A stretch of DNA of 6,955 bases from a virus. Lineage: Duplodnaviria; Heunggongvirae; Uroviricota; Caudoviricetes. Numbering within the stretch: the first letter of the stretch is position 1; the number at the start of each line of letters is the position of its first letter. The stretch lies in IMG/VR virus record IMGVR_UViG_2684622618_000019. One strand, written 5' to 3'. The notes below the pieces were generated by a model. It worked only from the letters and a program-made list of their open reading frames with translations. It made no database searches and was not told where the DNA came from. The position numbers were made by a program, and so were the translations under genes. Positions 2,144 through 6,699 of this stretch are shown here, in pieces.

Positions 2144-3805
2144 TTATATGAAAAAAACCGCATATTCTTTCTTTTTCGGTTCCGGGTTAAGGGACATCAG
2201 GGAGACCGCATTGAACAGCGCCATCAGCGGGTCAATTTTTCCCCGTCCACTGGCCTGTTTGGTGATAAGAATGGCGTTACCTTTAGGCTCCACCCGGGCA
2301 TTGCCGACACACCAGGCCATCAGGGGCTGGTCACCATGCACCAGCACCCCTTCAGCCAGTTTGCGCTCGGTGGTTTTAATGGCCCCGCCCAGTTTCCAGC
2401 CCTGGCTTATCCCCACCACAATTCCGTCGGGGATCCCGGCTTCCGCCAGTGAATCCAGAATCTGCCCCACCCCTGACGGGTCAATACCGATATGGTCCAG
2501 TAACTCAGCCTCATGAATGCGACGCACATATTCCGCCACTTCCGCCGTGTCATCCCCGACACGCCGGACAATGGTCATATCTCCACAGGCAACAAGATCC
2601 TGAAACCGGGACGCCTCGCTCTTCCGTCGGACCACCGCGGTTTCATGCGCCCAGGCATGGCCCCAGCCCAGCCATTCGCGGGTTTCCCTGTCACGGCCAA
2701 TCACGTACATTCCCAGCAGATCATCCAGGCCCCCGCCGTCAATCCCCACCGTCACCACATCAGCGCGCTGCAGGATATCGTCCAGGCTGACGCGCCTGCC
2801 CTGCTGCTCCCAGAAATCCGCACCCGCCCAGCGGTCAGAACGCAGGGCAAGACCAATTTCCACATTGGCATGTTTTGACATGAAGCCACGAAATGCTTCC
2901 TCACCAGCCTCCCGGGCTTTACGGTACTCCCGGTACAGAAAAGCCTCATCCACCGAATAACCGAGATTCGGGTTAACCATGGCGAGGTTTTCCATCAGCA
3001 GGTGAGCCCCGCTTTCCACCATTTCAGGAGGATGCTCAAAAATCACCGGCAGAAAGTGCGGATCATGAATTTTGCCGTCACGGACATCCCGGGCGTACTG
3101 CAGTTTCTGTCTGAACACCCCGGCTGGCGGCTCATTCGACTGGGTGGTCGTATACACCACAAACCCTTCCGGGCGGGAGGCAAGGCCGCCTATGGCTTCA
3201 CGTAACATGTCCTCCGCTTTGTACTGCTTGCCAAATAACCACAGTTCATCAATCAGCGTCCCCACGGACTTGATACCGGATACCGTATTCGGATCGGCAG
3301 CCACCACCTTCAGGGTGGTGTCCGTCACCCTGTGGGTGATGGTCCGGATATGTGTCTGCACCTGACAGAGGTCATCCAGATCATCGTCCCGTCGTACCAT
3401 ATCCCTGGCAGGGTTGAAGGCGTTAGCCGCCACCTCCACGGTCGGGGCCAGAATGGTGTAGCCCGCCGCCTGCCGCCAGTTCAGTAACAGCGCCGTCATC
3501 ATGATCCCGGCAGCCAGCGTGGACTTGCTGTTTTTCTTGGGGATAAGGATAAAAACTTCCTTGATATGGCGTACACCGGTCTGCGCATCGTAGGAGCCAA
3601 ACAGGGCCGCCACCAGGTCAAACACCCACTGTGCGCAGGACTCCCCGAACGTCGGGCTGCCCGGTGCATCCACAATCCGCAGTTGTTTAAAAATCGCCAG
3701 GGCATGTGCGGCCTGCTCCGGATAAATCGGAGCCGGAATAATCGACAGCCCCTTTTTCAGGCGCTCTGCCCAGTCCGGGCAGGCCGTGCTCCACACAGGT
3801 ATCAT
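2144..3805 (-). CDS. terL: terminase large subunit (Terminase_1 / HK97-type)
   Basis: 553-aa ORF. ATPase-type motifs IPKKNSKSTLAAG and LIDELW, nuclease-domain motifs VGIDGGG and KIDPLMALFNA. ATG 3805-3803 overlaps the terS stop as ATGA; GAGGG SD upstream. Confidence 0.9.
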   Translation of the reverse strand: MIPVWSTACPDWAERLKKGLSIIPAPIYPEQAAHALAIFKQLRIVDAPGSPTFGESCAQWVFDLVAALFGSYDAQTGVRHIKEVFILIPKKNSKSTLAAGIMMTALLLNWRQAAGYTILAPTVEVAANAFNPARDMVRRDDDLDDLCQVQTHIRTITHRVTDTTLKVVAADPNTVSGIKSVGTLIDELWLFGKQYKAEDMLREAIGGLASRPEGFVVYTTTQSNEPPAGVFRQKLQYARDVRDGKIHDPHFLPVIFEHPPEMVESGAHLLMENLAMVNPNLGYSVDEAFLYREYRKAREAGEEAFRGFMSKHANVEIGLALRSDRWAGADFWEQQGRRVSLDDILQRADVVTVGIDGGGLDDLLGMYVIGRDRETREWLGWGHAWAHETAVVRRKSEASRFQDLVACGDMTIVRRVGDDTAEVAEYVRRIHEAELLDHIGIDPSGVGQILDSLAEAGIPDGIVVGISQGWKLGGAIKTTERKLAEGVLVHGDQPLMAWCVGNARVEPKGNAILITKQASGRGKIDPLMALFNAVSLMSLNPEPKKKEYAVFFI

Positions 3806-4365
3806 CCGTTGCCCTCATTATCATTATTCACCACCAGGCGGGGTGGTGGTGGCACCGCAAAACGGTTAGCCGCTTTTTTCGCCGCGTCACCTTTTGCCGA
3901 TTTTTTACCGGCATCCCCTTTTTTGTGGTGCGTGAACTGCGCCAGCTTATAAGCCGCATCCAGCGCCAGCCTGGGGTCGGTATTAATGTTCTCCACCAGA
4001 AGACGCCCCATCGCTTTCACCGGATCGGGAAGACCGTCCTCCATATACTCAATACCAGGAGATATCACCACGGGCGGTGGCATCTCCGGATTTGTTTCGT
4101 CCGGCTGTGGTATTGCAGCCGCCTCACGGCGACGGGGTTTATCCTCCGGCTCTGATTTTTTCTGCCGATAAACAGGAACCTCATCCACCTCCACCGTCTC
4201 GCACTGTTTACGGGCTATAAACGCAAGCACCTCCGGATCTTTTGCCAGCTGCGAGCCTTTAACCCTGGCTGTCTTCGCCGAATAACCGGCGGCAAGGGCT
4301 GACGCTGTTTTGTTTTTCCCGGACATGAGCGCCAGCGCAAATTTTCGTTTTTGCGTTGTCAGCAC
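3802..4365 (-). CDS. terS: terminase small subunit (Terminase_2-like N-terminal DNA-binding region)
   Basis: 187-aa ORF with GTG start at 4365 preceded by GGGAGGAGG. N-terminal motif KRKFALALMSGKNKTASALAAGYSAKTARVKGSQL is typical of this terS family. Translationally coupled to terL by a 4-nt overlap. Confidence 0.8.
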   Translation of the reverse strand: MLTTQKRKFALALMSGKNKTASALAAGYSAKTARVKGSQLAKDPEVLAFIARKQCETVEVDEVPVYRQKKSEPEDKPRRREAAAIPQPDETNPEMPPPVVISPGIEYMEDGLPDPVKAMGRLLVENINTDPRLALDAAYKLAQFTHHKKGDAGKKSAKGDAAKKAANRFAVPPPPRLVVNNDNEGNG

Positions 4366-4439
4366 AGCCTCCTCCCGGGTCCAGAACGCACTCAGCCGGG
4401 TATGGTTCAGCCCATTTTTCCCGGCGTCTCATGCCGCAA

Positions 4440-4563
4440 ATGTTAACTGCTGCCTGGTTAACATTTGCTGAAAAAGCCTGTTAACATTTTTTCCGCACAA
4501 CAAACTGAATAATAAAGATAAAAACCGCAAAAATGCCCGGGCAGCCAGTTAACATGTTAACTG
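4440..4563. promoter_or_regulatory. array of CAGTTAACAT-type half-sites including an 18-bp perfect palindrome; candidate terminase recognition (cosB-like) region
   Basis: Half-sites at 4440-4447 (ATGTTAAC), 4457-4464, 4480-4487 (GTTAACAT) and the perfect palindrome CAGTTAACATGTTAACTG at 4546-4563. All sit in the 289-bp HNH-terS intergenic region. Confidence 0.35.
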
Positions 4564-4654
4564 CCCTGAAACGGGAATTTTTTCTCTGCGTGAGAGGGGG
4601 CGCGGTGTCCAGGGCGATCGTTTTTTTTCGCCGGATGATCCCCCCCGGGTCTGG

Positions 4655-5020
4655 TCACAGGCCAGTGATTCCGTCGGCCCTGAGCGTGCCATCAGGAAGC
4701 TCAGGCAACGTCGGATCAGGCATACCACTCGCCGCTTCACTCGCTGACTTCTGGCGATGGCATTCAGTACAGAGGGTCCAGAGGTTCGTCTCCTCATTAC
4801 CACCACCGAACTGAAGTGCAATGCGGTGATCGAGTTCACTGTCACAAAGGTCAACCACGCGTCTACAGAGACAACAGTGTCCGGCATCCCTCCGCCAGAT
4901 ACGACGTTTGAGGGAAACCCGGGCACTGCCACTGACACGACGCTGTTCCCCCCTCAGGACATTTATCCGCCGGGTGTTCAGAGTTTTGATTCTGCCCGGT
5001 AACGTACGAAGCACAGCCAT
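4655..5020 (-). CDS. HNH endonuclease (phage packaging-associated)
   Basis: 121-aa ORF; HNH core HCCLCRRVVDLCDSELDHRIALQFGGGNEETNLWTLCTECHRQK. ATG at 5020 with GAGGA 6 nt upstream. Position immediately upstream of terS is typical of HK97-like cos phages. Confidence 0.85.
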   Translation of the reverse strand: MAVLRTLPGRIKTLNTRRINVLRGEQRRVSGSARVSLKRRIWRRDAGHCCLCRRVVDLCDSELDHRIALQFGGGNEETNLWTLCTECHRQKSASEAASGMPDPTLPELPDGTLRADGITGL

Positions 5021-5061: not shown

Positions 5062-5289
5062 ATGTCATCGAAAAACCGGCCCCGCAGAACAACAACCCGC
5101 AACATCCGATTTCCAAACCAGATGATTGAACAAATTAACATCGCTCTTGACCAGAAAGGTTCAGAAAATTTTTCTGCGTGGGTCATTGAATCTTGCCGCC
5201 GGGAGCTGGCAGCAGACATAAAATATGCCCGTCAGTTGACTATAAAAAAGAATGATACACAGTATGCTCTGCGATGGCTGTTCATATAA
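5062..5289 (+). CDS. YlcI/YnfO-like small protein (DUF3950-like), copy A
   Basis: 75-aa ORF, ATG 5062 with GAGGAAA SD. The core NIALDQKGSENFSAWVIESCRRELA is conserved at protein level with the fragment at 5738-5848 despite many synonymous nucleotide differences, which argues for real coding. Family name is from memory of E. coli prophage YlcI, not a search. Confidence 0.7.
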   Translation: MSSKNRPRRTTTRNIRFPNQMIEQINIALDQKGSENFSAWVIESCRRELAADIKYARQLTIKKNDTQYALRWLFI

Positions 5290-5420
5290 CTATTTCTTTA
5301 TATTGCTGAATTTATAAAAACTCACAGACATTAGCTGTATTAATTCCGAATTGAAATAATCAGCCATATAGAATAAAAATAAAGCATAACAATAATAATC
5401 TTCTACCCAATCAGTACATT

Positions 5421-5452
5421 ACTGCTGTGACTCCAACACGGCAGTTTTTTTA
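5421..5452 (+). terminator. intrinsic terminator (plus strand)
   Basis: ACTGCTGTG-ACTCCAA-CACGGCAGT (9-bp stem with one G-U) followed by TTTTTTT; about 130 nt downstream of the YlcI-like gene. Confidence 0.6.
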
Positions 5453-5468
5453 TTGAACAGATTCCAGT

Positions 5469-5642
5469 TTCTTCCACCATCGCACCGGACGGGCGACCAT
5501 GAGGGGAGAACGCCGCGCTCCGTTTACGCGGTAAACCCCGGTGTGTATCGTTTTTGATTATCCCCGCACACTCTCGCAGAGGAGTCTCCCTGTCGGGCTG
5601 CGGTCTCTGTTAATGCAGGAATACGGCGACGATACGGCGCAT
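5469..5642. repeat. 174-bp conserved non-coding element, copy A
   Basis: Direct repeat of 6286-6459 with 9 mismatches in 174 bp (about 95% identity). Flanking sequence on both sides is unrelated between copies. No reading frame is conserved between the two copies. Confidence 0.9.
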
Positions 5643-5687: not shown

Positions 5688-5737
5688 NNNNNNNNNNNNN
5701 NNNNNNNNNNNNNNNNNNNNNNNNNNNNNNNNNNNNN
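5688..5737. other. run of 50 N: assembly or scaffold gap of unknown true length
   Basis: Exactly 50 N. Genes on both flanks are truncated by it and cannot both fit into 50 bp. Confidence 0.95.
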
Positions 5738-5848
5738 AATATCGCCCTTGAACATAAAGGTTCCGGTAACTTTTCAGCGTGGGTTATTGAAGCCTGCAGA
5801 AGAAGGCTGTCAACAGAGCGTTCGGGTATGAATTACATAATTAAGTAA
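5738..5848 (+). CDS. YlcI/YnfO-like small protein, copy B, C-terminal part only (5' end lost in gap)
   Basis: Frame starting at 5738 gives NIALEHKGSGNFSAWVIEACRRRLSTERSGMNYIIK-stop (TAA 5846-5848), matching the core of the 5062-5289 protein. No in-frame start exists in the visible sequence left of the gap. Confidence 0.65.
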   Translation, partial: NIALEHKGSGNFSAWVIEACRRRLSTERSGMNYIIK

Positions 5849-5977
5849 CATGGTGTTCACAGAACACACAGTTACCGGACACATCAGTTTTCCATTCGTC
5901 CCCCGGCAGTACAGGCTTCCCGTCTGACGGGATAGCCTGAAAAAACACAGAAAATTATTTGTTATAATTAATATAAC

Positions 5978-6118
5978 TTACTCAAAAAAAAGCGACGAGA
6001 AAATCAGCATCAACGAGCAATAAGCGCCAATACGTGATAACAAATGGCAGCCATATTTATCTGCAGTATAAGCAATGGACAGGATAACCACACCAGAAAC
6101 CGTCAGCATAAAATCCAT
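5978..6118 (-). CDS. 46-aa hydrophobic small protein (candidate membrane peptide); not in the supplied ORF track
   Basis: ATG 6118-6116 with GAGGAAG 8 nt upstream, TAA at 5980-5978. Product MDFMLTVSGVVILSIAYTADKYGCHLLSRIGAYCSLMLIFSSLFFE has two hydrophobic stretches. Sits in an AT-rich insert present only in copy B of the module. Confidence 0.4.
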   Translation of the reverse strand: MDFMLTVSGVVILSIAYTADKYGCHLLSRIGAYCSLMLIFSSLFFE

Positions 6119-6285
6119 TTGAACTTCCTCGGACAAAATCGACTCATCTAAAGATTTACAGCTCTTTTTATTATCAATATGTTAAAAGTAAAATAAACAG
6201 ATGTTCAATAATACGAATACAAAAACGTGCTGAAAATCAATGAATCCATTTCTGTGTTATCAATTAATAGTGATAAACATCCGGC

Positions 6286-6459
6286 TTCTTCCACCATCGC
6301 ACCGGACCAGCGACCATGAGGGGACAACGCCGCGCTCCGTTAACGCGGTAAACCCCGGTGTGTATCGTTTTTGATTATCCCCGCACACTCGCGCAGAGGA
6401 TTCTCCCGGTCGGGCTGCGGTCTCTGTTAATGCAGGAATACGGCGACAATACCGCGCAT
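6286..6459. repeat. 174-bp conserved non-coding element, copy B
   Basis: See copy A (5469-5642); constant offset of 817 bp. Confidence 0.9.
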
Positions 6460-6474
6460 GAATAATAAGGTCGC

Positions 6475-6699
6475 TCAACACACTGGCTGTAATGCAGCGG
6501 ATACCATGCGGCATTTAGCGGCATTCATCGTACACTCAACGGTTAGCTCTTCATTCGTGGCATTCACCTGAAAGGTCCTGGAGTGTAATTGCGTACATTT
6601 ACCACTGAACGAACCTTCAACAAGAACACGACCACGCTGCAAAATACGGAACGGAATTGTTCCCTGAAAAGGCTTTACGGTTACCAATAATTTCTTCAT
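6475..6699 (-). CDS. 74-aa hypothetical protein inserted between Rz and the 174-bp element
   Basis: ATG 6699-6697 with GGAGA SD 6 nt upstream; the track's TTG at 6717 is less likely. Product MKKLLVTVKPFQGTIPFRILQRGRVLVEGSFSGKCTQLHSRTFQVNATNEELTVECTMNAAKCRMVSAALQPVC has 4 Cys and no recognised family. Absent at the equivalent position in copy A, where the Rz stop lies 9 nt from the repeat. Confidence 0.5.
   Translation of the reverse strand: MKKLLVTVKPFQGTIPFRILQRGRVLVEGSFSGKCTQLHSRTFQVNATNEELTVECTMNAAKCRMVSAALQPVC

Follow-up and report, generated by a model that had tools for sequence, protein, structure and literature searches.

The locus described here lies in a 6,955-nt stretch of viral DNA (IMG/VR record IMGVR_UViG_2684622618_000019; hereafter the window), the late region of a lambdoid prophage of the E. 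coli O157:H7 type whose late operon is on the minus strand. Between the stop codon of a ylcI gene and a conserved element of ~180 bp, the window carries an AT-rich insert (5849–6285). In the insert, the open reading frame (ORF) listing and existing annotation give a 46-codon ORF on the minus strand (5978–6118). Upstream of it on the same strand are the Shine-Dalgarno (SD) sequence GAGGAAG (6124–6130), read from the sequence 5 nt before the ATG, a near-invariant 35-nt block at the predicted start of the 5′ untranslated region (UTR; 6164–6198) that was seen in an alignment of variants, and a sigma-70 promoter predicted by a promoter scan (TTTTCA-17-TATTAT, 6208–6236, predicted start near 6201). 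An earlier sequence-only reading of the window had described the ORF and its SD as we find them, but had taken the ORF to be unannotated. It is already annotated, as the hypothetical protein ECs_1538 (NP_309565.1 in Sakai prophage Sp6; WP_000347013.1 in RefSeq genomes), and there are public expression data for it. We conclude that the ORF is, very probably, a genuine gene whose product is a small hydrophobic membrane peptide.

With a GC content of 0.366, the insert is below the structural genes (0.583) and the adjacent element (0.589). The insert has no similarity to the other spacer that follows a ylcI gene in the window (spacer A; longest common words ≤10 nt). Both the low GC content and this dissimilarity had been pointed out in the sequence-only reading and are borne out here. 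The insert DNA is 100% identical to Sakai Sp6 and EDL933. It was found in 734 of 5426 complete E. coli genomes, mostly at ≥95% identity, so that about one in seven complete genomes carries the cassette, including O157:H7, O104:H4, O55:H7, O145 and O111 pathogens. The protein in O104:H4 is also identical to WP_000347013.1. A more distant lineage with 79% identity is represented among the complete genomes by a single record, SHP24, and further copies occur in IMG/VR contigs.

The length of the ORF is at chance level by itself and carries no weight; thus, coding was judged from comparison of variants and from published expression data. In SHP24 the frame is intact and encodes 45 aa (MGLMLTIAGVIVLFIACNADKYGYPLLSRIGAYCALILIFSSLFF), which supplies the homologue with a conserved frame in a related prophage that had been proposed as a check. 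Compared with the window, there are no indels in the SHP24 ORF and many in its flanks. The 13 replacements are mostly V/I, S/A and M/I exchanges, i.e., mainly hydrophobic for hydrophobic. Counted by the Nei-Gojobori method, the two ORFs differ by 12 synonymous and 13 non-synonymous changes (dS 0.51, dN 0.14), which gives a dN/dS of 0.28 (Fisher p = 0.004). None of the other five frames remains open in SHP24. An antisense 35-codon ORF noted earlier does exist (6044–6151, plus strand), but was rejected as a gene as stop codons interrupt it in this variant.

Among the close variants, four of the five point changes in codons 2–45 are third-position synonymous, the fifth being T18I. A variant with GTG instead of ATG as start codon is also present, and the remaining variation is slippage in a T8 run at the last codons. 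This run (A8 on the plus strand, 5981–5993) yields variant C-termini ending in LFF, LFFE, LFFFLSKLY or LFLSKLY. All of the ~170 copies fetched are open through codon 44 with the sole exception of one copy riddled with single-base indels (L223). The ORF and the promoter block are also kept in a decayed prophage (L184, 2310–2830; GCA_050595645.1) from which ylcI, HNH, cos and the 5′ half of terS are missing.

Expression data are available from Hücker et al. (2017; PMC5597208), who included ECs1538 among their 250 short annotated control genes and report RNA-seq and RIBO-seq values from uninduced Sakai (their S2 Table). In lysogeny broth (LB) the gene has an RNA value of 57.6 reads per kilobase per million (RPKM), a footprint RPKM of 26.1, a ribosome coverage value (RCV) of 0.46 and a coverage of 0.98. 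The corresponding values are 32.7, 7.3, 0.23 and 0.81 in brain heart infusion (BHI) and 2.1, 0.6, 0.29 and 0.13 under cold/salt stress (PMC5597208). The LB values satisfy the translation thresholds of that study (RPKM ≥1, coverage ≥0.5, RCV ≥0.25), and the transcription and translation signal that had been suggested as a check on the ORF is therefore present. The old annotation ECs1537, which corresponds to window positions 6260–6478 on the same strand directly upstream of the ORF, has an RPKM of 3.0. In the lysogen, ECs1536 is at 10.1, the holin gene at 8.4 and ylcI at 45.6 (PMC5597208), which places ECs1538 ~7-fold above the holin gene without induction. Given the rise from 3.0 upstream to 57.6 over the ORF, transcription must begin within the insert, at ~6119 to 6260. 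We conclude that the ORF transcript comes neither from the late operon nor from spontaneous induction, and with good confidence that the ORF is a real, independently expressed protein gene. A literature search found no paper text on ECs1538, WP_000347013 or the peptide string, and the gene is absent from the EDL933 translatomics supplements.

The lysogen RNA-seq and the retention of the −35/−10 pair in the 79% variant, as GTTTCA-17-GATAAT, together point to the predicted promoter inside the insert. Another promoter, predicted by BPROM 248 bp upstream of the start codon (S4 Table, PMC5597208), was rejected, as it lies inside the element, where RNA-seq is low. The tables of the same study predict an SD and no terminator (S4 Table) for ECs1538. 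In the other variants the SD position reads GGGGAAG or GGGGAA, and it is purine-rich in every variant. The 35-nt block is identical in the window (O157), O104:H4 and SHP24 and has one change in L184, whereas the adjoining UTR is only ~64% conserved. In IMG/VR, the 31-nt core of the block matched 93 stretches and the ORF motif was found in 95; thus, the block travels with the ORF. Wherever both were mapped, the core adjoins the ORF. Its conservation makes the block a possible regulatory site.

Downstream, the ORF is followed by a poorly conserved tail of 130 bp up to the convergent ylcI. The hairpin in this tail (5912–5939) had been described as strong, which it is (−18.6 kcal/mol, z = −3.9). 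On the minus strand the hairpin is preceded (5′) by a U-run, and on the plus strand it is followed (3′) by an A-run. With no U-run after it on either strand, it was rejected as a canonical terminator of either convergent gene. Nor is it conserved: in the common 97% variants the stem is weakened by G5922C, a change without compensation, and SHP24 (79%) has no equivalent.

The peptide has two hydrophobic segments split by ADKYGxx, with a grand average of hydropathy (GRAVY) of 1.1–1.5. AlphaFold (AF2), run without an alignment, predicts helices at residues 2–22 and 24–45 arranged as a two-helix hairpin (pLDDT 76). Transmembrane prediction had been recommended as a check, and the S9 Table of PMC5597208 predicts an inner membrane protein with two transmembrane helices (TMH). 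The conserved core is A-DKYG-x-x-LLSRIGAYC...LIFSSLFF, and the two-helix hydrophobic pattern is preserved through the 13 SHP24 substitutions. From the positive-inside rule we infer a topology in which the acidic termini (D2, E46) would be periplasmic and the basic loop (K21, H25, R29) cytoplasmic.

Homology searches with the peptide were empty. No match was found in Pfam or NCBIfam (both including E ≤ 1), PHROG, PADLOC or the PDB sequences, and the PADLOC defence-protein scan was negative for both peptide variants and both neighbours. Searches of large protein collections (5.8 billion clusters, 1.84 billion representatives) yielded nothing beyond E. coli copies, frameshifted variants and noise from low-complexity sequence. 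The degenerate motif DKYGxxLLSRIGAY and a profile scan gave no match among 185,579 species-representative genomes. A Foldseek search of the AF2 model against viral structures found generic helical hairpins only (best E = 0.68). On the sequences searched, the ECs_1538 peptide is an orphan of E. coli prophages.

The insert occupies a slot that runs from the ylcI stop codon to the ~180-bp element, downstream of the Rz/Rz1 lysis genes. In the window the element does follow the insert, as had been noted, but its boundary is at 6280 and not at 6286 (copy B, 6280–6459). The element is GC-rich, and copy B is 93.9% identical to the other copy in the window (copy A, 5463–5642). We found the element in 398 phage records, down to ~76% identity (~83% in lambda-like phages), always between Rz (or bor) and ylcI. 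In lambda-like phages it abuts the ylcI homologue (83% amino-acid identity in one phage) with a gap of only 10–12 bp. Elsewhere the spacing between ylcI and the element is 173–179 bp where the small RNA (sRNA) gene hnrS is present, ~437 bp with the present insert and ~610 bp with a gene for a TonB_C lipoprotein. The element folds no better than shuffles on either strand, and Rfam matched nothing in it or in the insert; over the full window it gave a single hit, to a snoRNA in terL, which is due to chance. The element may be a recombination anchor. It also carries a short plus-strand ORF (MCIVFDYPRTL...).

To survey the contents of the slot we used IMG/VR contigs with the ylcI-proximal end of the element, comprising at least 120 loci, of which 95 were newly fetched. 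Among these 95 the slot was empty (12 nt) in 11 loci and held hnrS (~176 nt) in six, two sRNA-like units, one with the hnrS seed (876–909 nt), in two, a 113-aa TonB_C lipoprotein (~610 nt) in 29 and a frameshifted copy of the present insert (~437 nt) in one (L223). No ylcI was found within 2.5 kb upstream in 38, and in eight the contig end was too near for classification. About 25 further loci of the at least 120 carried the ~437-nt insert with the 46-codon ORF. The lipoprotein was thus the commonest slot content among the matches listed. Its cassette (L193 and 28 other IMG/VR loci) lies on the late-operon strand and encodes a lipobox, LVMGC, and a TonB_C domain (Pfam E = 1e-14). In the two long inserts (L190, L224; 876–909 nt) the hnrS-like sRNA gene has the same seed (AAUAAUCUUCUACCC) and a different 3′ half, and the second unit is a promoter-less-looking hairpin followed by a T-run.

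In the surveyed loci with the ORF it lies between ylcI and the element, and these loci have either a Nu1-type or an HNH and TerS packaging module. The flanks of the slot are unchanged with or without a 74-codon ORF before Rz. The immediate ORF neighbour is ylcI in all surveyed loci reaching that far; L184, which has lost ylcI, was analysed separately. The sequence of YlcI/YnfO (DUF3950) shows the pattern of a beta-strand followed by a helix (IRFPNQMIEQINIAL...SAWVIE), and PHROG and NCBIfam give weak matches to HicB-like and BrnA antitoxins. This suggests a ribbon-helix-helix DNA binder, which might conceivably regulate the slot cargo. A PDB sequence search with YlcI gave nothing meaningful.

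The window seems to hold two tandem copies of ylcI and the element, and the insert had accordingly been described as specific to copy B of a duplication. This did not survive comparison with complete genomes. The two halves are separated by a 50-N scaffold gap (5688–5737), with contig ends falling in Rz and in ylcI. To the right of the N-run the sequence matches Sakai prophage Sp6 and EDL933 at 100% identity; to the left it matches another prophage of these genomes, also at 100%. The left piece lies at 4.699 Mb and the right piece at 4.481 Mb in strain CDC#03-98, and in complete O157:H7 genomes the two are ~217 kb apart and in different prophages. The left piece is 99.5% identical to Sp6 up to window position 5190 and then diverges, and in complete genomes the left arrangement passes directly from the element into Rz. 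Since the contigs of two prophages were joined by 50 Ns, the apparent tandem duplication is an assembly artefact. Copies A and B are alleles of one locus in two prophages, juxtaposed by scaffolding, and the insert is the Sp6-type allele of the slot. Seeming tandem copies that flank an N-run in a draft assembly can therefore be alleles from separate prophages, which calls for caution.

The allele in copy A is spacer A, an AT-rich stretch of 173 bp between ylcI-A and element copy A (5463–5642). It has a promoter (TTGAAA-18-AAAAAT, 5351–5380) and a terminator (5421–5451) that bracket ~66 nt on the plus strand (sRNA at ~5386–5451; whole gene 5351–5451). Exact copies lie at the published positions of EcOnc12, EcOnc11 and EcOnc10 in Sakai Sp9, Sp10 and Sp12, respectively, if a 128-nt offset between two versions of the Sakai record is allowed for; the right side of the window corresponds in Sakai to Sp6. 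Positions 5406–5420 (15 nt) are complementary to what we take to be the last five codons of mazF. A mazF complementarity of hnrS is stated in PMC13502914. A seed, CUUCU, is present at 5400–5404 and matches the ribosome-binding site (RBS) of hha, AGAAG; this anti-RBS seed and the 66-nt size both fit the description in PMC13502914. HnrS is a prophage sRNA that represses Hha and was recently shown to relieve Hha/H-NS silencing of virulence genes (PMC13502914; PMC4104026). By its sequence, then, spacer A can be identified as the hnrS allele (EcOnc10/11/12) of the slot. Spacers of the hnrS type were found in 568 genomes, compared with 734 for the insert with the ORF.

The remainder of the window contains the protease/capsid region (143–2080), TerL (2144–3805), TerS (3802–4365) and an HNH endonuclease (4655–5020), with a cos-like non-coding stretch between terS and HNH (4366–4654). 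Several GTTAACAT/GTTAAC repeats are seen inside this stretch at ~4440–4565 and are likely terminase-binding/cos sites of an HK97-like packaging module. The ylcI-A gene (DUF3950) is at 5062–5289 on the plus strand, and the 3′ end of Rz lies between element copy A and the N-run. On the other side of the gap is the 3′ part of the second ylcI (YlcI/YnfO, DUF3950; 5738–5848, plus strand), the convergent neighbour of the ORF, which is cut by the scaffold gap. Beyond element copy B, the other border of the slot, follows the 74-codon ORF (ECs_1536-like; 6475–6699, minus strand), with Rz/Rz1 to its right. This 74-codon ORF is carried by only some of the insert-bearing prophages. It matched only positions 100–172 of the 291-position PHROG profile phrog_2571 and may be a remnant of a longer gene.

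Taking these observations together, we judge it somewhat better than an even chance that the insert is a moron, namely a lysogen-expressed cassette for a small hairpin protein of the inner membrane, whose action on a membrane component would benefit the lysogen. By a moron we mean a cargo cassette, complete in itself, that sits in a slot prone to recombination in lambdoid prophages. In position, the insert separates two features, the ylcI homologue and the element, which lie next to each other in related phages. Its base composition is distinct from both the structural genes and the element (GC 0.366 versus 0.583–0.589), and it is transcribed in the lysogen, with a predicted promoter of its own that is kept in the diverged variant. 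In position, composition and independent lysogenic expression it conforms to the definition of a moron; it departs from the definition in having no factor-independent terminator of its own.

According to this proposal, the 46-residue product would form a two-helix hairpin in the inner membrane, where it would bind or disturb a host membrane component to the advantage of the lysogen, perhaps as a small-protein modulator or a superinfection-exclusion factor. As the gene has the same orientation as the late operon, it may also be read through from that operon after induction. Our confidence in any specific mode of action is much lower than in the gene itself. Being expressed in uninduced lysogens, the peptide is a candidate lysogenic-conversion factor. 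More speculatively, and in our view with rather low probability, the slot could be a dedicated exchange site for small lysogenic-conversion effectors, with ECs_1538 as a new E. coli-restricted class of two-helix membrane effector that has a specific host or phage target, and with the 5′ UTR block as its regulatory switch. If so, ECs_1538 might act by closing the route of DNA entry to competing phages, or by modulating a transporter or sensor of the inner membrane.

Several observations weigh against the moron reading and the gene on which it depends. ATG-initiated ORFs of at least 46 codons arose in 865 of 2000 dinucleotide-preserving shuffles of the 437 bp (43%). The evidence for selection comes from one diverged lineage, SHP24, and a third lineage (variant P0007, locus L184) shows five non-synonymous and one to two synonymous changes. 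The read counts of ECs1538 are small (7 and 4 in BHI; S7 Table, PMC5597208), and its RCV of 0.46 falls short of the 1.55 that short annotated genes average (PMC5597208). The scan found no canonical terminator (hairpin and U-run) downstream of the ORF, and the exact transcript start is a prediction. No homologue of known function was found for the peptide, and its membrane activity is inferred only.

Some of these points would also fit a fortuitous ORF in an insert that is non-coding cargo, such as a regulatory RNA, a promoter or H-NS-binding AT-rich spacer, or recombination debris. The chance-level ORF length, the mostly non-synonymous changes in L184 and the low RIBOseq counts all speak for it, as do the bona fide sRNA gene hnrS in the same slot of sister prophages, the confinement of the family to E. 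coli prophages and the fact that the best-conserved part is the non-coding block at 6164–6198. We nevertheless consider it unlikely in view of the dN/dS of 0.28 (p = 0.004), an ORF free of indels between flanks that have many, the enrichment of synonymous changes in close variants, the conserved SD and the hydrophobic two-helix pattern retained through 13 substitutions. In addition, the ORF passes the published translation criteria (PMC5597208), and the insert shows no Rfam match, Hfq peak or significant RNA fold.

The sequence-only reading had likened the peptide to small membrane toxins of type I toxin-antitoxin loci. The comparison holds for a membrane peptide, with two TMH predicted, but finds no support for a toxin. 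A type I system would consist of a 46-aa membrane-depolarising toxin whose translation is checked by a cis-antisense or divergent small RNA. The peptide is indeed small, hydrophobic and located in an AT-rich prophage island, its predicted 5′ UTR is long (~83 nt) and includes the near-invariant 35-nt block, and its translation efficiency is below average (RCV 0.46 versus a mean of 1.55; PMC5597208). A plus-strand promoter-like site (TTTACA-17-TATGTT, 6155–6183) could drive a divergent RNA over the 5′ end of the mRNA, and read-through from the convergent ylcI, from which the ORF is separated by no terminator, could be antisense. However, in the diverged variant the promoter-like site does not reach the threshold of the scan, and it is not followed by a plus-strand terminator. 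There are no inverted or direct repeats of ≥11 nt within 5738–6470 for pairing between an sRNA and the mRNA, and no Hfq-bound RNA is listed at the locus among the 64 EcOnc sites, so the antisense small RNA that had been envisaged finds no support there. The fold of the 5′ UTR and ORF is unremarkable (z = −1.66 versus shuffles), and 98% of the ORF is covered by footprints in normally growing cells. No Pfam family, Hok, Ldr, TisB and Ibs included, was matched, in agreement with what had been noted from the sequence, and the two helices without a polar tail in the AF2 model are unlike most type I toxins. We therefore regard a type I system as rather improbable, and a self-poisoning toxin as unlikely.

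Finally, a late-expressed lysis accessory (a holin, antiholin or spanin helper) of the adjacent S-R-Rz/Rz1 cassette, as suggested by the small, predicted membrane peptide, by its orientation with the late operon 360–600 bp downstream of Rz/Rz1 and by the earlier description of it as holin-like, is highly improbable, since that cassette is already complete (class II holin, lysozyme, Rz/Rz1), many sister prophages with the same lysis genes have no such ORF, the gene is ~7-fold above the holin gene in the uninduced lysogen, and the peptide ends in ...SSLFFE with neither a charged C-terminal domain nor a holin match in Pfam or PHROG.

With the moron reading preferred, ECs_1538 itself appears real but fairly ordinary, and the analysis was most useful for two by-products, the context of a cargo slot and the recognition of spacer A as hnrS. 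The slot is a compact cargo site worth mining, with hnrS, the TonB_C lipoprotein and the present peptide among its contents.

Small membrane superinfection-exclusion proteins of phages include T4 Imm, HK97 gp15 and P22 SieA. Like the predicted ECs_1538 product these are small inner-membrane proteins, encoded by phages or prophages, that are non-essential and variably present, but ECs_1538 has no homology to them (the PADLOC and PHROG scans were empty) and a different genome position. The type V toxin GhoT/OrtT, a small membrane peptide with two helices, and the small regulators of the inner membrane in the class of AcrZ, MgtS and MgrB are similar in size and in their predicted helical membrane topology, a resemblance of kind only, and action through the membrane or a membrane-protein partner is likewise likely. 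ECs_1538 has no Pfam match to GhoT_OrtT at E ≤ 1, and no ghoS-like partner gene lies beside it.

With the E. coli type I toxins (Hok/Gef, Ldr, TisB, IbsC, ShoB, ZorO, DinQ) ECs_1538 shares a short hydrophobic peptide (<60 aa), an accessory AT-rich locus and a long 5′ UTR. It differs in that it matches none of the families, lacks a repeat for pairing and has no antitoxin RNA that could be detected. Most of the toxins have one helix and a polar tail, whereas ECs_1538 is predicted to have two helices and is footprinted in growing cells.

The closest comparison by location is hnrS, which occupies exactly the same slot in Sp9, Sp10 and Sp12 and is likewise AT-rich, equipped with its own promoter and expressed in lysogens. 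The product of hnrS is an Hfq-binding sRNA of 66 nt; its gene lies on the ylcI strand and ends in an intrinsic terminator. The Sp6 cargo is protein-coding and uses the other strand, has no terminator and no listed Hfq peak, and shows no sequence similarity to hnrS.

The morons of lambdoid phages (lambda bor and lom; HK97/HK022) were reportedly defined by Juhala, Hendrix and co-workers in 2000. The present cassette differs from the named ones (Bor, Lom and others) in having no canonical terminator and no sequence relation to them. In other respects it is alike: the lambdoid morons are also cassettes of different base composition between genes that are adjacent in relatives, with their own promoter (here inferred), expression in the lysogen and an envelope-associated product (here predicted), and lambda bor is likewise located in the region from Rz to cos.

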